Assembly (NCBI GenBank): GCA_014685065.1
Contig: GCA_014685065.1_4092.1
Reading direction: 5' to 3' (one strand)
Origin: a phage
Length of the DNA stretch: 64,000 bases
Positions 7,056-45,297 of this stretch are shown piece by piece (the stretch's first letter is position 1; each line of letters begins with the position of its first letter). Under the pieces are notes generated by a model. That model was not told where the DNA came from. It ran no database searches and worked only from the letters and a program-made list of their open reading frames with translations. A program made the position numbers and the translations under genes.

Positions 7056-7383
7056 AGGTTCAAATCAATATAAATGTATTGCAGAGATCAGGAAGAAAGA
7101 TGGAACACTTGTAGACCGAGCATTGAAGCAAGAATATAAAGAACTACGTGATGTGGTGCATAATGATAGTTATGGCGGGATGCGTCGTCAAAAAATTTAT
7201 GAATATCTAAAGAAAGGTTTAGAAATTCAGGTTAATGGTCTTCATTGTATTCAAACAAAAAACGATCCTGATATTCTACGTTTGTTGAAAGAAGATAAGA
7301 TTGAAATGTTTAATGTTCCTATTTCATTCTATGGTAATAAACTAAAATGTAAGCATACTTTCTTGAGGATTAAAAATGGTTGA
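7045..7383 (+). CDS. hypothetical protein
   Basis: ORF; ATG 7045 with GAGG RBS preferred. Confidence 0.45.
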   Translation: MALRGSNQYKCIAEIRKKDGTLVDRALKQEYKELRDVVHNDSYGGMRRQKIYEYLKKGLEIQVNGLHCIQTKNDPDILRLLKEDKIEMFNVPISFYGNKLKCKHTFLRIKNG

Positions 7384-35328: not shown

Positions 35329-37293
35329 TTATCTAATTGTTACCAATGTTCTTCCGTCGAAACGTACATCAGGAGTTGAAGGTATACTAAACACTACGTT
35401 AGTGCCGTTAAACGTAACGCTATCGACCTCAACACGAGTATAGACACCAGGACTAACCTGTTCCTGTATCTCTGCTGTGACGATGTTTGAGGCTGTTACA
35501 GTAAGGGTGTAGTAGTTACCACTTAATACCCAAGATGAAATGGTAAAAGCATCGGTTCTCACTGAACCTGAACCAATCGGAACCCATTGACCTTGAACTT
35601 TTTGCATTGAAGTACGCTCGGTATTTGAGTATGCAATCATACCATCAACGCCAACAGAGTTATCAATAGTTGCTAGTACTGGTAATTGGATACCATATCT
35701 ATTAAAACGTGTTCTTATAGTTCCATTATCATAGATACTTACATCAGCATAATTACCCATTGATAGTTTTAAATCAGAACTAACTAATTGGATTGTACTT
35801 TGATTAGTAGTACTTTCTAATGTAATTATACCATTAGCTAATAGATTTATATTTTTAAATTTATTAGTTGTTCCATTGAAATTAGTGTTTGCTGTAAACG
35901 TACTAACTCCATTAACTGTAATTGTATCTGATGCAGCATCGCCTAATATGGTATTACCTTGAATGTTCAAATTACCACTAGCAGTGATATTACTAGCTGA
36001 TGTATCACCAGTCAATGTGCTTGTACCATCAACCACAATATTACCATGAAACGCACTTTCACCATTTTTAAATTCAACTTGTACTTTATTCATTGAACTA
36101 AATGAAATAATATTACTACTAGCACTTAGTCCAACATTAGTATTGGTTGCATTATCAAATCTTAGTACTGGGGTTGATGCTGGGGTTGAAGTTGTTTGGT
36201 ATAATGTTAATGTTGAATTATTAATTCTAATACGTTCAGTTCCCGCAGTACTGAAACCAATTGCATCATCTGCTGGATGAAACATACCAGTATTAGCGTC
36301 TGACCATTTTGCAGGATCATTACCTGGGTTATTGGTTGGATCAAATGGATTGTTATTAAATGTCAATGCTGGTGCTGCTGCACTACCATACACCACACCA
36401 AAACGCCCTGAGCCGCTTGTTCCATCATTATACATGGAATCACCAGTTCTACGTAAACATTCAATCACAACGTTATCTATGGATGTTTGTACGGTTCCTG
36501 CGTTCGTTCTAAATTGACGATGGTTTGCAATCATTACTGTATTGTCATATAATACAGAAGCAGCAGAAATGCTTGTTCTTGACTGGCGTAGACGTATGTT
36601 TTTATCTTCAGTTATAATGATCCAATCACCATCTGATAGTGCGGTTTGGTTCATTGGAACGCCTGAAGCAAATGGTTTGGTTAAGTCAGCATCTGTTGCT
36701 AAATTTTTAAGACCATCATGACCAGTACTAGGAATAGATGCAGTAATAATTCTTGCAAAAGCGTATGTTACAAGTTTAGCACCAGATATATTTGGATTGG
36801 AGTCAACATAATATAAAATTTCAATCCAATTACCTTGACCAGTTGGGTTCGTAGGTGTAAATGTAACCGGACTTGTTTGTGGGTTATTTGCTTCAAAGTG
36901 TGCTTGTGCTGCATCCATAATACCACGAACAACATAATAATCACCATTTAGTGATGCTGCTGGTGCTGGTAGTGGCGTTTGTGCTAAAGGTGGGTCAATA
37001 TCATCTGGAATAGGATTATATGTACCAACAAACTGCAAACCACTAGTTACTGAATCTGGTAATTGGGAAGTAAGAAGTTTACCATTTGCATCTAAGTTTG
37101 CAAAGCGGCGATATGCCATAGTACCATCTTCAAAATCCAGAACACCTTCAAATGATTTCCATTCCTTATTGTATCTAATCATCCCTGATCTTATTACATC
37201 AGCGGTTTCTTTTGATGGTGCTTTCGGTAACTCTAAAAAAGATTTACTATCAATAATTACACCACCATCACCTCTAATTCGATTTATACTCAT
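35329..37293 (-). CDS. tail fibre protein
   Basis: 654 aa, N/T/S/G-rich beta-type composition, GAGGA RBS. Confidence 0.55.
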   Translation of the reverse strand: MSINRIRGDGGVIIDSKSFLELPKAPSKETADVIRSGMIRYNKEWKSFEGVLDFEDGTMAYRRFANLDANGKLLTSQLPDSVTSGLQFVGTYNPIPDDIDPPLAQTPLPAPAASLNGDYYVVRGIMDAAQAHFEANNPQTSPVTFTPTNPTGQGNWIEILYYVDSNPNISGAKLVTYAFARIITASIPSTGHDGLKNLATDADLTKPFASGVPMNQTALSDGDWIIITEDKNIRLRQSRTSISAASVLYDNTVMIANHRQFRTNAGTVQTSIDNVVIECLRRTGDSMYNDGTSGSGRFGVVYGSAAAPALTFNNNPFDPTNNPGNDPAKWSDANTGMFHPADDAIGFSTAGTERIRINNSTLTLYQTTSTPASTPVLRFDNATNTNVGLSASSNIISFSSMNKVQVEFKNGESAFHGNIVVDGTSTLTGDTSASNITASGNLNIQGNTILGDAASDTITVNGVSTFTANTNFNGTTNKFKNINLLANGIITLESTTNQSTIQLVSSDLKLSMGNYADVSIYDNGTIRTRFNRYGIQLPVLATIDNSVGVDGMIAYSNTERTSMQKVQGQWVPIGSGSVRTDAFTISSWVLSGNYYTLTVTASNIVTAEIQEQVSPGVYTRVEVDSVTFNGTNVVFSIPSTPDVRFDGRTLVTIR

Positions 37294-37340: not shown

Positions 37341-37371
37341 AAAAGAAAAGGCCAAGCATAGACTTGACCTT
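37341..37371 (-). terminator. intrinsic terminator (minus strand)
   Basis: AAGGUCAAG / CUUGGCCUU hairpin then TTCTTTT on minus strand. Confidence 0.55.
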
Positions 37372-37380
37372 AATATGTTA

Positions 37381-38871
37381 TTAAACTACAGAAACCCCAC
37401 TCATTGAAGGTGGAACGATTTGCTCAGCAATTAATAATAAATTAGTGACTGTAAACTTGCCACCATGTGACATTAACGTAATAGGTGTTCCATTAGTTAC
37501 TAGGTTACCATTTTCATCAACACTTAAAAATGTATTAAATGAAATAGTATCAACTGTGATTGTTGGTGTTCTAACTTGGTTAATATTATTAAATTGAGTA
37601 TTTGTAAAATTAATAGCAAAACTCATATTAGATGAACTAGTAGTCCATGTACCGTATATATTTAATTTGAAATTTAGAGATGAATTGAAATTATAAACAT
37701 TTAGCTTATTACTTGTTGTATTGAAGAAACTATCTAGTGTTCCACTAGTGGGGGTCAATGATTTAAGTATTTGAATTAAATTCTGTTCAATACCATCTGT
37801 GAATTGTATATTTAAGTTTGAATAATATAATTCTCTTTTTCTACGAACTAGGTTAGTAGTATTATTACCATTAACAAATAATCCAGAACTATCTGATGTT
37901 AATATATTACCAGAGGTATTACTTATTTTAGACGAAATAACATTACTGTCAATAGTTATACCATTTCCAGCAGTATATGAGGATGGTCCAGTCGGTACAT
38001 ATAACCCATTTACGTCAGTTGTTAAAGTATTTCCTGGTGTTGTGCTTATTTTGGTTGAAATTGTTTCTGAACTAATTGATATACCAGTACCACCAACGTA
38101 ATTTATTCTTGTATTAGGCACAAACAATCCAGTACTGTCAGTAGATAGTATATTACCAGAAGTAGAACTAATTTTAGCACTTATTATATCAGAATTAATT
38201 GAAATTCCGTTACCAGCATTATAAGTTACAGTATTGTTAGGAACAAATAAACCATTGCTAGTAGAAGATAATATATTTTCTGGCGTAGGGTCAACCTCAA
38301 CACTAATCACTTCATCACTAATTACAATCCCATTACCCGCATTGTACGTTATCGAATTATCAGGTACGAATAGACCCGTACTATCAGTTGTAAGGATATT
38401 TCCTAAAGATGTGCTTACTTTTGATGATATAATATTATTATCTATTTTAATACTGTCACTACCTGTATATGTTACTGTATTATCAGGTACATATAAACCA
38501 TCTTCGGCAATAGTAAGGATGTTATTAGGTGATGTACTTATTTTAGTTGAGATAGTATTATCACTTATTGTCACACCAGTGCCACCAGAATACACAATTG
38601 ATGTATTAGGAACATATAAACCATTAGAATCATTACTAAGAATATTTCCTTGTGTTGAACTGATTTTTGTTGATATTAAATTAGAGGTTATTGATATACC
38701 AGTACCACCTTGATAGTTAATAGTGTTATCTGGAACATATAAACCATCACTTTCATGAATTAAAATATTTTTATTTTTAGAACTAATATCAGGTACTGGA
38801 ATCTTACCTATTAGAACACCGTCATAACTGATATCACCATTTACAATAATATCTGTTCTTATATTATACAT
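37381..38871 (-). CDS. tail fibre protein with ~35-aa tandem repeats
   Basis: repeating unit GNIL..D..GL(Y/F)VP(D/N)N...Y.(A/G)G.GI.I....IS.K(I/V)S at least eight times. Confidence 0.55.
   Translation of the reverse strand: MYNIRTDIIVNGDISYDGVLIGKIPVPDISSKNKNILIHESDGLYVPDNTINYQGGTGISITSNLISTKISSTQGNILSNDSNGLYVPNTSIVYSGGTGVTISDNTISTKISTSPNNILTIAEDGLYVPDNTVTYTGSDSIKIDNNIISSKVSTSLGNILTTDSTGLFVPDNSITYNAGNGIVISDEVISVEVDPTPENILSSTSNGLFVPNNTVTYNAGNGISINSDIISAKISSTSGNILSTDSTGLFVPNTRINYVGGTGISISSETISTKISTTPGNTLTTDVNGLYVPTGPSSYTAGNGITIDSNVISSKISNTSGNILTSDSSGLFVNGNNTTNLVRRKRELYYSNLNIQFTDGIEQNLIQILKSLTPTSGTLDSFFNTTSNKLNVYNFNSSLNFKLNIYGTWTTSSSNMSFAINFTNTQFNNINQVRTPTITVDTISFNTFLSVDENGNLVTNGTPITLMSHGGKFTVTNLLLIAEQIVPPSMSGVSVV
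37880..38810 (-). repeat. tandem ~105-nt coding repeats inside fibre gene
   Basis: periodic amino-acid motif in translation. Confidence 0.5.
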
Positions 38872-38887
38872 ATATTTTCCTTATATT

Positions 38888-38920
38888 GAAACAAATAAAG
38901 GCCAACCATAGTTGACCTTT
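38888..38920 (-). terminator. intrinsic terminator (minus strand)
   Basis: AAAGGUCAAC / GUUGGCCUUU hairpin then ATTTGTTTC; near-copy of hairpin at 37341-37371. Confidence 0.5.
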
Positions 38921-38928
38921 ATTATTAA

Positions 38929-39708
38929 TTAACGTATACGTTCAGGAATATCAATACCTTCATATACCCAAGTTGCAGCTTGTTGTGCTTTATAAATTGC
39001 ATCAGGATCTAAATCATTAACTGCATCAATTGCAGCACACTGACGATCACATTCAGCAAACAACTGTTCTACCATCGCAAATGCTTCAGTATATAGTTGT
39101 GTCATTTCAGCAGCAGATAGTTTAACTATTGCATCATCGAGAAATATAGAGACAGTTTCAGCACCAGAAGTTACTTGAGTATAATAATTAAGTAACATTT
39201 GACGACCAGCTAGATCAGTACTATAACGTTGTCCTTTAAACAAATAACCACGATTAATACGTTCACCACGTTCTGCTACAGTTCTGGATTTTAAATCATA
39301 TTTCACATCAGTGATATTCATATCAACGTAATGGTATGTTTTCAGTACTGTTAATGCTTTATACTCTGATGTAGCTTCTTCAATAAATTCAACAACTGGT
39401 TGATTATCATCTTTTAACTTAATAAACTCCAATGGTTGTTCAATAGCATTAACATTGCCAATATTTTTATACACTAACCACCAAAAACCTTCTTCTTTTC
39501 TAACAGCATCATTAGGTTCCACTGGAGAACCATCTTTACTTGAAATACCATAAAGAGTTCTAATATCACTATAAAGATAACGATAGGTTTGTGGATCTTC
39601 TGGTGTAGCACCTGGACGTTCTTTCAATCCTTTTACACCAATTGGGTTAGAAATAATGCTACCCAATTCATAATTTTCTTTTGAATTTCCTTTCACATAT
39701 GTGAACAT
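38929..39708 (-). CDS. hypothetical protein downstream of long fibre gene (possible fibre assembly factor, position only)
   Basis: ORF 259 aa, GAGG RBS. Confidence 0.3.
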   Translation of the reverse strand: MFTYVKGNSKENYELGSIISNPIGVKGLKERPGATPEDPQTYRYLYSDIRTLYGISSKDGSPVEPNDAVRKEEGFWWLVYKNIGNVNAIEQPLEFIKLKDDNQPVVEFIEEATSEYKALTVLKTYHYVDMNITDVKYDLKSRTVAERGERINRGYLFKGQRYSTDLAGRQMLLNYYTQVTSGAETVSIFLDDAIVKLSAAEMTQLYTEAFAMVEQLFAECDRQCAAIDAVNDLDPDAIYKAQQAATWVYEGIDIPERIR

Positions 39709-39771: not shown

Positions 39772-42700
39772 TTAAGCTGTACGTTGTGCAATAAACATAT
39801 CTACAACTGGACTTACACCATCATAAATGACTTGGTAAATGGTCACAGAGTTTGCAGTTTTGTTTAGAGTGCCATCAACAACCGCATAAGTACCATCAGT
39901 AGTAAAGTTTCTGTTACCAGTTGCATCTTGTTTCACATAAATGTATACTGAAGATGCTTTACCACCACCGATTAGACCAGTGATTGGTGCTAGAGTTGTA
40001 TCTTGATCAAGGGTGATAAAGTATACGTTGCTAGTACCATCAGGAGTCCAAGTACCAGTTGGTGCAATAACAGAAGAAGTTACTTGATTAGGAATAACAT
40101 CATATTTTTTAGTAGTTACAGTAGTAGTAGTTAAATCAGCATTAGTTGTTGTTAGTTGACCAGTAACTGTTACATTTTTGTCAAACACAGCATTTTCTTT
40201 GAAAGAAGATGTTGCATTAACAGTTAATGTATCAGCAGCAGCGTCACCTAGAACAACACTACCATTTGCAGTCATTAAACCAGTAACAGTTAAAGTACCA
40301 CCTACGGTTGCTGCACCAGTTACAGATGCACTAGCAAGAGTAGCTGCACCAGAAGTAGTAATTGTAGTTACAGAAGTAGCACCAAGGGTAGCAGTACCAG
40401 TTGCAGAAATATCACCACCGACAGTTAGGTTACCAGAAGTAATACCAACAGTTCCTGTGATATTCGCACCACTTGACATAGTAACTGCACCACCGAATGA
40501 ACCAGTAGTAGTTACTTCAAGAGTGTTACCTTTTAGTAAACCAGTTGCAGTAATGCTTGTTCCTGCGGTAATACTAGTACCAGCAGCAACACTGTTAGTT
40601 GCAGTTAAAGATTTAACAGCCACATCAGAGTTAGCTTGGTTTAGCGTTGCGTTTAGAACACCCGTTACTGTAAAGTTACCATTGTTAACTACGTTACCAT
40701 TGATGGTTAAGTTGTTGTTTTGTGAACCAACATCACCAATAGTTGCAGATTTAGAAATCAATTCTGCACCAGATGTGATATTACCTGCTGCACTAATAGT
40801 ATCAGCAGCAACAACAGCATATGGTTCGATAGTTTGACCACTAACATCGATATCAGCGTTGATACCACCGTCTACACGCAAGGAACCTGCGATGTAAGTG
40901 TTAGGGAAAATCTGAACTGTTTCTGGTTGATCACCAATTTTTGTACCAATTACAACGTTCGCACCAGTTTTAACTGCACCAGATGTTGTTAGTGAACCTA
41001 AAGTTGCTTCACCAACTACACCTAATGTACCACCTACGGTTGCGTTATTAGTAACTGCCAAAGCTGTTCCTTCACCGTTAAGGGTGATAGATGGAGCAGT
41101 CGCTGCACCAGTTACGCCCAATGTACCACCTACGGTTGCGTTGCCATCAGAATGTAGTGTAGTAGCTACAGAAAGACTGTTTGCAACTACATCAGTACTT
41201 GCAAGATCCAATGCACCTGGTGTTAATGTACCAGTAATGTTAACATTATTACCAAAGGTTGCTGCACCAGTAACATCTAGAGTTGTACTAAATGTACCAG
41301 AAGTTGCAGAAACAGCACCAGAATCTAGTGAACCGACAGTTGCTTTTCCAGTTACACCTAGTGTACCACCTACAGTTGCGTCGGTTGTTACACCTAATGT
41401 ACCAGTACTAACTTCTTGAGCGGTTGCTTTACCAGATGCAGTAATAGTTGAAGTAGATACTCCCCCAGTTAATGTGCTTGCACCAGTTACTGCTAAAGTT
41501 GTTGCTGCTGTTACGCTGTTCACGTTAAGGTCAGCACCAGCTAGGTTCAAACCACCTTCAGGAATAAATTCACCCTTCACTGTTAGTTTTTGTACTGTAC
41601 TATCACCAGTGACTGCTAGTGTAGATGCAGTTAAACCACCATTCATACTAGCTGCACCAGTTACACCGAGTGTAGTGGTTACAACAGCACTATTAAGAGT
41701 AGCAGTGTCGGAAATATTAGCACTTGGTGCAGCAATAGTCCCAGCATCAACTTGAATACCACCAGTAACAACTTGGATACCACCAGCATTAACAGTGAGT
41801 TTACCAGCAGTGTTTAAGGTATTTGATACAGTTGTAGCACCAGATAGTGTACTTGTACCAGTAACACTTAGATTACCAGAAATTATTGGGCTACCAGTTA
41901 CATTACCAGTTGTTAGAATTAAATCAGTACCTACAGTTGTAGAACCAGTACTTTCTAATGTTACACCAACAATGTTAGAAGAACTTAGGTTAATTGAACC
42001 TGTTACAGTCAAGTCACCATTAACAGTTGCGTTACCTAGTGAATTTAATGATTTCACTGAAACATCAGTAGTGCTAAGGTCAATTACACCCGCAGTTAAT
42101 GTACCAGATACAGCCAAATCACCAGTGATTGCAGTGTTTTTAGTAATAGAAACACTTTCAGCAGCAGAAGTTAGAGAACCAACAGTCAAAGCACCGCCGA
42201 CAGTGGCGTTATTAGTAACGTTAAGTGCAGTACCAACACCAGATAGTGTTGCAGACGCACCATTAACAGCACCAGAGATATTTGCATTTGCAGCAGATAC
42301 ATCACCTGAAACAGCCGCAGTTGTTGCATTTACTGTAGTTGCGGTAATATCAGTACTTTGTACTTTTGGTAGTAGGTTAACACCTTCAGCACTACTAACA
42401 GTGATGATTCCAGCACTTGTTAGAGATTTTACTGATACATCAGCAGCAGATAGGTCTACAGTACCAGAAACAACAAGGTCACCACCAATATTTGCACCAG
42501 CAGTTGTTGTGATTGATTTAGCATTAACATCAGTTGTTGTTAAATCAATAGCACCTGGTGTTACTGTACCAGAAACTGTTAGGTCACCAGTAATAGATGT
42601 ATTATTAGCAATAGATACACCCGCAGTATTACCAATGGTTGGAACTTCAATAGAAACTGCTGTAACTTTACCAGAAGATGTTACATCAGCAACAGAAGTT

Positions 42701-45297
42701 GCACCAGTTACATTCAAATTAGTAATATTCGCAGTAGTAGAACCTAGAGTTGCAATTGTCGCATCAGTACTTTGTAGTTTAGGTAGAACACTACTAATAG
42801 TTGATTCATTACTAACGATTGCACCAGTACTGGTTAGAGATTTAACTGTTACATCAGCAGCAGTTAGGTCTACTGTACCGTTAACGGTTAAGTTTCCACC
42901 AATTGTTGCACCAGCAGTTGTTGTGATTGATTTAGCGTTAACATCAGTTGATGCTAGGTCGATAGATCCAGGAATCACAGCACCACTAACAGTTAAGTCA
43001 CCAGTGATAGAAGTATTATTACCAATTGTAACACCAGTTACATTGGAAATAGATGGAGTAACTAGAGATGCAGTTGTTGTTTCACCACTTACATTTAAAG
43101 TTGTTCCGACTACAACATCAGCACTTGTACGAACAGATGCTAGATTAGATGGACCTGTTACCGCAAGTTCAGTTGCATTAACAGTATTAATTGTTGCAGT
43201 AGTACTATTAAGTACTGGTAAAACGTTGGCGTTAACCAAATCATTACTTTTAACAATACCAGAAGTTGTTACAGATTTAACGTTAAGGTCAGCGGCTGAT
43301 AAATCAAATGACCCTTGAACAACTAAATCACCACCAATTGTTGCACCAGCAGTTGTTGTAATAGAGTTTGCATTAATATCAGTAGTGCTTAGATCTAAAG
43401 AACCTACAGTTAAACTACCAGTAATATCAACGTTTTCAGTAAAGTTAGTATTTCCAGTAATAGTTGGAGCAGAAAGACTTGTAGCACTAATAGTTGTACC
43501 ATTAATAGTTCCACCACTTAGTATACCACTTGCAGTAATAGTTGGAGCACTTACTTCAGTGGATGCAGTAATAGATGGTGCAGATACAGATGTTGTACCA
43601 GTAATAACACCAGCATTAATAGAACCAGCAGATAATGCACCAGATAGATTTGCAGTAGTACCTGCAATATCACCTGTAACGGTTAGTTTAGCACCTACAG
43701 TAGTATTTCCAGTACTTTCAAGAGTTGCACCTTTCACGTTTGCAGCAGCTACAACAGAGTTAGGAGTTAAGTTTTGACCACTAACATCAACAGTTAGGCC
43801 AGTAACAGTACCAGTGAAATCAACATCATTAAGAATAGTTTTACCACCAACTTGTAGGAATGGTGTACCTGGGGCTTGTGTTTCATTACCAGTGATAGTT
43901 AGGTAATCTAGTTTGTTAAGACCGTTACCAGTAATACCATAGGTAGATAGTGAAGCATTACCAAAAGTTGCGGTTTTTAGAACATTCAATGTTGCAGGTG
44001 AAACAACTTCTGATTGAACTTCGTTAGGTAAAATAACAGTTGGGCGTTGGCCTGGTGCTGTATATCCAAATCCTAATTTAACTGCTGCATCTTGACTGTT
44101 TTGACCCAAGCTAATGGATTTGAAAGAAGCAGTACTATTAAAGCCAGTGATATTTGAACCTAAAGTTACTGCACCAGTTAGTGAAGATGTACCAGTAACA
44201 TTCAATGAAACTGCATTAATATCGTCAAGTTGGAATGTACCACCTAGTAGACCAGAAACGTTAATGTTATTAAAGTTTGCGGTTCCTGTACTTTCAATAT
44301 TTGGAATAGTTGCTGTACCAGTAACTTCAAAGTCAGCAACTTTGGTTTTACCCTTTTGAACTTCCAATAGTGGGGTGTCTGGTGATTGAGTATTGTTACC
44401 AGATACAGTTAGGTAATCTAGTTTGTTAAGACCGTTACCAGTAATACCATAAGAAGAAAGAGAAGCGTTACCAAATGTTGCAGATGTCAAAACTGTTAAA
44501 TTTGCAGGTGACATTAATTCAGATTGAATTTCGTTTTGAAGAACTACAGTAGGACGTTTACCCGGAGCACTGTAAGGGAAGCTTAGTCTGAAGGTTTGAG
44601 ATTCAGAGTTGGAACCAATACGAATGTCTTTAAAAGTAGCAGTACTGTTAATACCAGTTACGTTAGCACCGAAAGTCACTGCACCTTGTTGGTTAGATGC
44701 ACCAGAAACGTTCAATGTTACTGCATTTAAGTCAGAAAGATTAAACTGACCACCTAATGTACCACTAATGGTTACATCTTTAAAAGTAGCAGTTCCAGTA
44801 CTACTAATATCGGTTGTACTTACATTAGTAATTTCTGCGGTATTAGCAGTAATTTTATCAAATGCAGCAGTAGTACCAACATCAGCAGTAATATTACCTT
44901 TAAATGCTGTTGTTTCAGCAACTTCTAAGTTTTTAACTTTAGTTGCTTGTAGAGTGGTTGTACCAGCAGTTTGTGTAAAATCAGAACCAACTGATACAGT
45001 ACCGTTAAAGGTAGCGTTTGAATTAATTGTTGCTGTATCAGACCCGACAACTGCACTACCGATTGTAGTATTACCCTCAACACCAAGACCACCAGAAAGT
45101 GTTGCTTTGCCACCAACATCTAAAGTAGATGTAATGTTGGCAGTTGATGATTCAATGGCAGTAAAAGTTGCATTTGCAAAAGTTACAGTACCATTTACAG
45201 TTAGGTTATTATTGAAAACAGCATTTCCTTTGACTAAAAGATCCTTACCAACCGTACCAGCACCAGTAATATCTAAGTCAGTTTTTATTGAGTACAT
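39772..45297 (-). CDS. long tail fibre protein (1841 aa) with extensive T/G/S/A/V-rich repeats
   Basis: continuous ORF, GGAGGG RBS, low-complexity beta-strand-like repeats. Confidence 0.6.
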   Translation of the reverse strand: MYSIKTDLDITGAGTVGKDLLVKGNAVFNNNLTVNGTVTFANATFTAIESSTANITSTLDVGGKATLSGGLGVEGNTTIGSAVVGSDTATINSNATFNGTVSVGSDFTQTAGTTTLQATKVKNLEVAETTAFKGNITADVGTTAAFDKITANTAEITNVSTTDISSTGTATFKDVTISGTLGGQFNLSDLNAVTLNVSGASNQQGAVTFGANVTGINSTATFKDIRIGSNSESQTFRLSFPYSAPGKRPTVVLQNEIQSELMSPANLTVLTSATFGNASLSSYGITGNGLNKLDYLTVSGNNTQSPDTPLLEVQKGKTKVADFEVTGTATIPNIESTGTANFNNINVSGLLGGTFQLDDINAVSLNVTGTSSLTGAVTLGSNITGFNSTASFKSISLGQNSQDAAVKLGFGYTAPGQRPTVILPNEVQSEVVSPATLNVLKTATFGNASLSTYGITGNGLNKLDYLTITGNETQAPGTPFLQVGGKTILNDVDFTGTVTGLTVDVSGQNLTPNSVVAAANVKGATLESTGNTTVGAKLTVTGDIAGTTANLSGALSAGSINAGVITGTTSVSAPSITASTEVSAPTITASGILSGGTINGTTISATSLSAPTITGNTNFTENVDITGSLTVGSLDLSTTDINANSITTTAGATIGGDLVVQGSFDLSAADLNVKSVTTSGIVKSNDLVNANVLPVLNSTTATINTVNATELAVTGPSNLASVRTSADVVVGTTLNVSGETTTASLVTPSISNVTGVTIGNNTSITGDLTVSGAVIPGSIDLASTDVNAKSITTTAGATIGGNLTVNGTVDLTAADVTVKSLTSTGAIVSNESTISSVLPKLQSTDATIATLGSTTANITNLNVTGATSVADVTSSGKVTAVSIEVPTIGNTAGVSIANNTSITGDLTVSGTVTPGAIDLTTTDVNAKSITTTAGANIGGDLVVSGTVDLSAADVSVKSLTSAGIITVSSAEGVNLLPKVQSTDITATTVNATTAAVSGDVSAANANISGAVNGASATLSGVGTALNVTNNATVGGALTVGSLTSAAESVSITKNTAITGDLAVSGTLTAGVIDLSTTDVSVKSLNSLGNATVNGDLTVTGSINLSSSNIVGVTLESTGSTTVGTDLILTTGNVTGSPIISGNLSVTGTSTLSGATTVSNTLNTAGKLTVNAGGIQVVTGGIQVDAGTIAAPSANISDTATLNSAVVTTTLGVTGAASMNGGLTASTLAVTGDSTVQKLTVKGEFIPEGGLNLAGADLNVNSVTAATTLAVTGASTLTGGVSTSTITASGKATAQEVSTGTLGVTTDATVGGTLGVTGKATVGSLDSGAVSATSGTFSTTLDVTGAATFGNNVNITGTLTPGALDLASTDVVANSLSVATTLHSDGNATVGGTLGVTGAATAPSITLNGEGTALAVTNNATVGGTLGVVGEATLGSLTTSGAVKTGANVVIGTKIGDQPETVQIFPNTYIAGSLRVDGGINADIDVSGQTIEPYAVVAADTISAAGNITSGAELISKSATIGDVGSQNNNLTINGNVVNNGNFTVTGVLNATLNQANSDVAVKSLTATNSVAAGTSITAGTSITATGLLKGNTLEVTTTGSFGGAVTMSSGANITGTVGITSGNLTVGGDISATGTATLGATSVTTITTSGAATLASASVTGAATVGGTLTVTGLMTANGSVVLGDAAADTLTVNATSSFKENAVFDKNVTVTGQLTTTNADLTTTTVTTKKYDVIPNQVTSSVIAPTGTWTPDGTSNVYFITLDQDTTLAPITGLIGGGKASSVYIYVKQDATGNRNFTTDGTYAVVDGTLNKTANSVTIYQVIYDGVSPVVDMFIAQRTA

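Follow-up and report, generated by a model that had tools for sequence, protein, structure and literature searches.

An optional fibre gene of an Asteriusvirus jumbo coliphage encodes a 41-residue repeat array, an Sf6-type knob and, probably, a beta-spiral shaft

The fibre gene and its repeat array

We analyzed a 64,000-nucleotide (nt) stretch of phage DNA (GenBank assembly GCA_014685065.1, contig GCA_014685065.1_4092.1; hereafter the window) in which positions 37381..38871 of the minus strand hold a complete gene for a repetitive fibre protein of 496 amino acids (aa). The open reading frame (ORF) list gives it an ATG start, and the coordinates include the stop codon. Asteriusvirus genomes (121Q/PBECO4-like jumbo coliphages of ~350 kb) match the region at 92-93% identity, which assigns the window to a jumbo phage of Escherichia coli of this type. 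The protein consists of three parts in register: a 30-aa N-terminus, a repeat array at aa 31-337, and a C-terminal domain. Data presented below indicate that it is probably a homotrimeric accessory tail fibre built on the plan of the adenovirus fibre and PRD1 P5, with a shaft likely to be a beta-spiral.

The array spans nt 37861-38781 and comprises 7.4 units, with a period of exactly 41 aa and zero indels between units. Seven complete units of 123 nt, delimited by autocorrelation and register, cover aa 31-317 (37921..38781, minus strand); from the N-terminus onward, their boundaries are 38659-38781, 38536-38658, 38413-38535, 38290-38412, 38167-38289, 38044-38166 and 37921-38043. The partial eighth unit (aa 318-337, NTSGNILTSDSSGLFVNGNN; 37861..37920, minus strand) supplies the first ('A') hairpin only. 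Autocorrelation of aa 21-345 gave identities of 47.9, 49.4 and 44.1% at lags of 41, 82 and 123, respectively, whereas the maximum over all lags in 1000 shuffled controls averaged 14.9% (standard deviation 1.0) and reached 19.7% at its highest. The unit consensus is xTxGNILxxDSNGLYVPxxxxxYxxGxGIxIxxNxISxKIS, and the array as a whole is rich in Ser, Thr, Asn and Gly. A preliminary description of this DNA had placed eight or more tandem repeats of ~35 aa in a fibre protein at 37880-38810. The tandem repeat is real, with 48% identity at lag 41 against the shuffled maximum, and both motifs quoted in that description, GL(Y/F)VP(D/N)N and G.GI.I....IS.K(I/V)S, are present in every unit. The period, however, is 41 aa, the count falls to seven complete units plus a fraction of an eighth, and the span was slightly offset from the true array.

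Identity between units is only 47-67% in DNA, which blinds Tandem Repeats Finder to the array: run on the DNA, the program reported nothing relevant there. Of the repeat tools applied to the periodicity, protein autocorrelation detects it and the DNA-level method does not. An origin by recent DNA duplication or slippage was considered and rejected, as no DNA-level repeat was detected and the units have diverged to this degree. The repeat is old and is maintained at the protein level. A 159-aa ORF antisense to the array (38234-38713, plus strand) most likely arises only because the coding strand is repetitive and poor in stops, and is not taken to be a gene.

Preceding the array, the N-terminal 30 aa (MYNIRTDIIVNGDISYDGVLIGKIPVPDIS; 38782..38871, minus strand) are conserved in the alignment of all knob-bearing relatives and presumably form the segment that docks the fibre to the virion.

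The C-terminal knob

The C-terminal domain (aa 342-484; 37420..37848, minus strand) is homologous to the TNF-like tail-needle knob of the Sf6 type. It matched PF16532 with an E-value of 6e-28 and 98.1 bits (gathering cut-off 27) and the sequences of the Sf6 and HS1 knob crystals (PDB 3RWN and 4K6B) with an E-value of 4e-28. In a full-length AlphaFold model, the knob attained predicted local distance difference test scores (pLDDT) of ~76-87 in its best blocks. A Foldseek search with the modelled knob retrieved 3RWN (E 5e-13; template modelling (TM) score 0.79 on the target), then PRD1 P5, EDA-A1 and TNF/C1q-family folds, and a TNF-like jelly roll is accordingly what the model predicts for this domain. 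Sf6/HS1 knob residues E146, K200, S248 and D250 contact bound L-glutamate (PMC3741392). These align with E347, K402, S450 and D452 of the window protein; all four are conserved, and the positions are invariant or nearly so in the alignment of knob-bearing relatives, suggesting that the ligand may be retained as well. By analogy with the Sf6 and HS1 knobs, whose crystals each contain three chains, the domain would form a trimer. Presumably, it caps the trimer and sets its register, and presumably it also contacts the cell surface.

The homology to the Sf6 and HS1 needle knob, together with the match of the whole ORF to PHROG 1030, named 'tail needle knob' (E 3.8e-70), could be taken to indicate a true tail needle, that is, a cell-puncturing plug on the tail axis like Sf6 gp9 and P22 gp26. 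We regard this reading as highly improbable. Searches of Pfam and PDB sequences revealed neither an N-terminal needle domain nor a coiled coil, and long helices are absent from the models. The tail of this jumbo phage is contractile, and a fully viable relative, 121Q, lacks the gene, which is therefore not an essential axial plug. Moreover, knob homologues outside P22-like phages, found in large virulent phages, carry unrelated N-terminal parts and have no assigned function (PMC3741392). 'Tail needle knob' is thus an apt name for a single domain and not for the whole protein.

Fold of the shaft

In the full-length AlphaFold model, built from an 11-sequence alignment, the shaft had a pLDDT of only ~35-50, too poor for fold comparison, and only the knob part of that model was used. 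A shaft-only model of aa 195-337 was therefore the basis for structural searches; it employed a 37-row alignment of three-unit segments from the window protein and its relatives, and had a mean pLDDT of 69.4 and a predicted TM score (pTM) of 0.27, the latter expected of an extended chain. Both models display the same two-hairpin pattern. In every unit, strands at positions 8-10/13-15 and 29-32/35-38 pair into two beta-hairpins, each closed by a two-residue turn. Hairpins recur at 21 and 20 residues, separated by loops of 10-13 residues. G13, beside the turn, is conserved, as are the I/L/V/F/Y positions. The modelled chain thereby exhibits the traits of a beta-spiral shaft, namely tandem strand-tight turn-strand-loop pseudo-repeats with alternating hydrophobic residues and a conserved Gly near the turn. 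That the preliminary description spoke of a fibre protein with a shaft is consistent with this extended chain of hairpins, with the Sf6-type trimeric knob at its end, and with the location of the gene in a cluster of structural genes.

Foldseek comparison of the shaft model with the PDB returned 27 of 350,542 chains at E<=10, the top 19 of which were all triple beta-spiral proteins. These included reovirus sigma1 (3S6X/Y/Z, E 0.015-0.06; also 6GAP/6GAO), the Serratia antifeeding-prophage fibre AfpX13 (8UUR, E 0.03; also 8UUS) and the adenovirus fibre shaft (1V1H, 1V1I). Against the predicted viral structures of BFVD, 24 of the 27 top matches were adenovirus fibres (E from 6.5e-4, probability up to 0.99). 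A three-unit sequence profile, which is independent of the model, was also searched against PDB sequences. Its top four matches were two constructs of AfpX13 (E 0.008 and 0.015), Pvc13 (9QGO, 0.045) and the adenoviral fibre 8ON5 (0.55). Pvc13 is described as an intertwined trimer whose central repeats share homology with adenovirus fibres (PMC12546770); no published description of the AfpX13 structure (8UUR, 8UUS) was found in the literature searched. Triple beta-spirals form a small class, to which a 2008 review admitted only the adenovirus fibre, PRD1 P5, sigmaC and sigma1 (PMC2588538). Although weak singly, the matches agree, with two independent methods selecting this one class from very large libraries. 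Because Foldseek and the sequence profile converge in this way, a triple beta-spiral-type rod is the best-supported fold for the shaft, and we consider it the probable one.

A number of observations weigh against a beta-spiral shaft in an adenovirus-like fibre. Every link to the class is weak on its own. The PDB Foldseek matches to solved beta-spirals have E-values of 0.015-0.9 and TM scores of <=0.2 for a monomer query with a pLDDT of 69, the TM scores being low because a single extended chain cannot superpose globally. The model itself is of a monomer, and its 37-row alignment was assembled out of shifted repeat segments. E-values of the sequence profile are at best 0.008, which is borderline, and Pfam Adeno_shaft gives no match even at E<=10. 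The pseudo-repeat measures 20-21 aa here, as against ~15 aa in the canonical adenovirus shaft. In addition, the A and B half-units have no detectable homology to one another (hhalign probability 4%), and the idea that they are diverged copies of one hairpin is unsupported. With respect to the other end of the fibre, the knob did not set host specificity in P22/Sf6, where glutamate binding was also dispensable (PMC3741392); because of this, a receptor-binding role of the knob is an assumption.

The weakness of the individual matches, all of them sub-significant for the beta-spiral, also bears on whether the trimeric shaft might adopt another beta fold, such as the triple-stranded beta-helix of T4 gp5C and gp12 or the interdigitated beta-structure of T4 gp34/gp37. 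Folds of this kind are common in phage fibres, and lower-ranked Foldseek matches include the phage tail fibres 9RKV and 7Y5S and lambda Stf-repeat proteins. Conversely, there were zero triple beta-helix proteins among the 27 PDB Foldseek matches, and the sequence-profile matches are all adenovirus-like shaft proteins. The model is moreover made of tight two-residue-turn hairpins and 10-13-residue loops, not of continuous short strands around an axis. We judge a different trimeric fold to be unlikely but worth keeping in mind; were it correct, the layout of N-terminal anchor, shaft and knob would be unchanged.

Still less probable are the alternatives of the preliminary description, a beta-solenoid or a lectin-like array, considered here as one chain wound into a solenoid or as a string of mini-domains binding carbohydrate along the fibre. 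The Ser/Thr/Asn/Gly-rich composition resembles that of many carbohydrate-binding repeats, and the titles of PDB entries 3S6X/Y/Z indicate that the body region of reovirus sigma1 binds sialic acid. A solenoid finds some support in a Pfam Beta_helix (PF13229) match to the repeats (E 0.0013); however, its 18.8 bits are under the Pfam cut-off of 25.9, there is no solenoid in either AlphaFold model, and Foldseek favours the triple beta-spiral. Neither model is compact (pTM 0.27-0.32), the chain being drawn out into extended hairpins with a pTM of 0.27 for the shaft, as opposed to an array of independently folded domains. The hydrophobic core of a two-hairpin unit of 41 aa is also too small for independent folding, and the attached knob is an obligate trimer in both crystals. 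We consider either version of this proposal very unlikely.

Variation in unit number

Relatives of the fibre differ in unit number, as shown by a comparison among related phages of the kind that the preliminary description had proposed. ELP-22 has 9.4 units (578 aa), the window 7.4 (496 aa), PBECO4 and UB 6.4 (455 aa), and a protein from a 345-kb contig labelled E. coli (protein P0002, 291 aa) just 2.4. Half-units were mapped between relatives by DNA identity. Unit 2 of the window combines the N-part of ELP-22 unit 2 with the C-part of unit 3, and unit 4 combines the N-part of ELP-22 unit 5 with the C-part of unit 6, the latter less clear (75% DNA identity). The N-part of PBECO4 unit 2 likewise corresponds to that of ELP-22 unit 2, and its C-part to that of unit 4. 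As judged from this mapping, the shorter versions are in-register unit fusions. The termini are nearly identical while unit number changes, and since the fusions are in register, shaft length shifts in whole 41-aa steps.

The adenovirus shaft is reported to rise by ~13 Å per hairpin (van Raaij et al. 1999). At that rise, the window shaft would be roughly 20 nm long, and shafts of the relatives would measure roughly 6 to 25 nm.

Distribution of the repeat family

Pfam holds no model for the repeat. Scans of the repeat region and of distant relatives gave nothing above threshold, the weak matches to Beta_helix, SLH, Ntox43 and other families being noise. When 1.84 billion cluster representatives were scanned exhaustively with HMMER, 55 proteins were retrieved at E<=0.001, 19 of them at E<=1e-10, and by these numbers the repeat family is rare. 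A profile search of a 5.8-billion-protein set recovered short fragments only and added little. The exact 496-aa sequence was not found by identity look-up in a 15-billion-protein collection, and full-length homologues are confined to PBECO4, UB, CRJP21 and ELP-22, in all of which the orthologue is annotated.

Some relatives share the N-terminus and knob of the window protein and differ in the number of units. Others are phage proteins with unrelated termini; the gene for one of these (P0008) adjoins that for a collagen-repeat protein. In an 1811-aa relative (P0025), repeats alternate with globular inserts. Two further proteins, P0026 (2200 aa, with a signal-peptide-like N-terminus) and P0027 (a related, 5'-truncated fragment), carry the repeat dozens of times, interleaved with a second module of ~35 aa (DDQNASEVAVTPAGNITSTDVQAALEELDADI...). 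From their sequences, these two seem to be surface proteins of bacteria and not fibres of phages. Unit spacing ranges from ~37 to 54 aa across relatives. In P0005, P0007, P0009 and P0025, copies of the first hairpin module (xxGNxLxxxxDGLFVP) follow one another every 23-24 aa with the second module absent; hence, the 41-aa unit is a composite of two separable modules.

Genomic setting

The fibre gene lies within a minus-strand block of structural genes that includes tail-fibre and virion-structural genes. Immediately upstream is the gene for a 259-aa DUF4376 virion protein (38929-39708, minus strand; PF14301, E 1.7e-9), labelled in PHROGs as a virion structural or tail-fibre-type protein. Another neighbour, at 39772-45297 on the minus strand, encodes an 1841-aa tail fibre, identified from the ORF list and family matches. 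The gene following the fibre in the block specifies a 654-aa structural protein (35329-37293, minus strand), after which comes a thymidylate synthase gene on the opposite strand.

The first 12 aa of the repeat fibre resemble the N-terminus of the 1841-aa fibre. The common motif, MY(N/S)I(R/K)TD(I/L)x(I/V)xG (38836-38871 in the repeat fibre), is carried by these two ORFs only in the window, and on the strength of this resemblance it may constitute a common docking site for several fibres of the phage. Repetition is also marked in the 1841-aa fibre, in which PHROG 4549 matches seven stretches and long blocks like '...SITTTAGATIGGDLVVQGSFDLSAADLNVKSVT...' recur. This fibre gene also yields several long spurious ORFs on the opposite strand, such as one of 507 aa at 41795-43318.

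The fibre gene is an optional cassette within Asteriusvirus. In 121Q, gp570 adjoins gp569 and the fibre gene is missing, as it is from other records matching only ~90% of the region; a more distant metagenomic relative has identical gene order, fibre gene included. The DUF4376 gene is retained in 121Q despite the absence of the fibre gene there, which argues that its product is not a dedicated chaperone of the repeat fibre. Two copies of a terminator-like hairpin of the form AAGGTCAA..CTATG.TTGGCCTT flank the fibre gene, and these are the only two copies in the whole 64-kb window. One (AAGGTCAAGTCTATGCTTGGCCTT, followed by a T-run; 37348-37371, minus strand) begins 10 nt past the fibre stop codon. 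The second (AAGGTCAACTATGGTTGGCCTT; 38898-38919, minus strand) is situated in the gap that separates the fibre gene from the DUF4376 gene upstream. At the empty site of 121Q there is a single hairpin copy, around 7300-7377 of the 121Q sequence. Because two copies bracket the gene and one copy marks the gene-less site, we infer recombination between the hairpins, which suggests how the cassette was gained or lost.

Discussion

The arrangement of parts suggests how such a fibre might be built. The 30-aa N-terminal segment would attach it to the virion. Each of the 7.4 shaft units would contribute two non-identical hairpin-plus-loop modules 21 and 20 aa apart, type A conforming to GNILxxDxxGL(Y/F)VP and type B to GxGIxIxxxxISxKIS. 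Approximately 15 hairpins from each of three chains would most likely intertwine into a triple beta-spiral-type rod, rigid and of adjustable length. The Sf6-type TNF-like knob, its L-glutamate pocket residues kept, would cap the trimer and probably touch the cell surface. Because units are modular and in register, recombination between them could add or remove whole 41-aa steps, changing fibre length while leaving both ends undisturbed.

Likenesses to known systems are distributed unevenly along the protein. The C-terminal 143 aa are ~41% identical to the Sf6 gp9/HS1 knob, with which they share the predicted jelly roll and the four L-glutamate contacts. Needles of Sf6 and P22 bind gp10 through their N-terminal domain and have a shaft of alpha-helical coiled coil, whereas the window protein has an unrelated 30-aa N-terminus and a shaft predicted to consist entirely of beta repeats. 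Furthermore, the window gene is dispensable and resides in a jumbo myovirus, while Sf6 and P22 are podoviruses.

Overall design matches that of the adenovirus fibre, with its short N-terminal tail, hairpin-plus-loop shaft of repeat-dependent length and trimeric jelly-roll knob. The B half-unit also shares its hydrophobic and glycine pattern with the aligned shaft repeats of 8ON5. Nevertheless, there is no significant sequence match to adenovirus fibres and none to their Pfam shaft family, and the window fibre, from a bacterial host, alternates two pseudo-repeat types in a strict 41-aa super-repeat. PRD1 P5 (1YQ5, 1YQ8) and reovirus sigma1 are likewise trimeric vertex fibres in which a beta-spiral is followed by a jelly-roll head; PRD1 P5 is the next-best fold match to the knob after Sf6/HS1, and sigma1 the best PDB match to the shaft. 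Both lack a sequence relationship to the window protein, both belong to capsid vertices of viruses that lack a tail, and in each the beta-spiral portion is far shorter and less regular.

Fibres of extracellular contractile injection systems (eCIS), namely Afp13/AfpX13 (8UUR, 8UUS) and Pvc13 (9QGO), provided the best PDB sequence-profile matches (E 0.008-0.045), ranked among the best fold matches, and belong to contractile phage-tail-like machines. Their N-terminal regions differ from that of the window fibre and their repeats are less regular. The C-terminal region of Pvc13 is described as resembling the T4 short fibre (PMC12546770) and is unlike the Sf6-type knob, and the particles in question inject toxins and target eukaryotic cells, unlike a coliphage.

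The knob, the adenovirus-like shafts of eCIS fibres and the general plan of adenovirus and PRD1 P5 are already known. Three features appear not to have been described before, namely the strict 41-aa double-hairpin super-repeat family, its pairing with an Sf6-type knob in a tailed coliphage, and clean unit-wise length polymorphism. In its fullest form, the proposal is that a tailed E. coli phage carries a complete fibre of the adenovirus/PRD1 type, with a triple beta-spiral shaft made from an undescribed 41-aa super-repeat and a TNF-like knob, and that the repeat family extends to other phage fibres and to large secreted bacterial surface proteins (e.g., P0026). We advance this combination only tentatively, as one that may prove correct.

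Solved triple beta-spirals are few, comprising those of adenovirus, reoviruses, PRD1 P5 and now eCIS fibres. Proteins of the present kind are labelled 'hypothetical' or, misleadingly, 'tail needle knob', and annotation of the class would be cleaner with a model for the repeat. The natural 41-aa steps (2.4 to 9.4 units in close relatives) offer a ready system for relating fibre length to adsorption, and the shaft is a possible modular spacer for retargeting fibres. Since it is an optional cassette, the gene is a candidate cause of the differing host ranges of therapeutic jumbo phages that otherwise resemble one another. In the eCIS literature, adenovirus-like repeats have been taken to mean that the fibres came from eukaryotic viruses or that their targets are eukaryotic (PMC12546770). 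Such a shaft joined to a TNF-like knob in a coliphage would argue against that interpretation. If the proposal holds, the adenovirus-like repeats of Afp13/Pvc13 need not derive from eukaryotic viruses or signal eukaryotic targets; such repeats would be part of a repertoire that bacteria and phages have long possessed, and the fibres of non-tailed viruses may have drawn on the same source.

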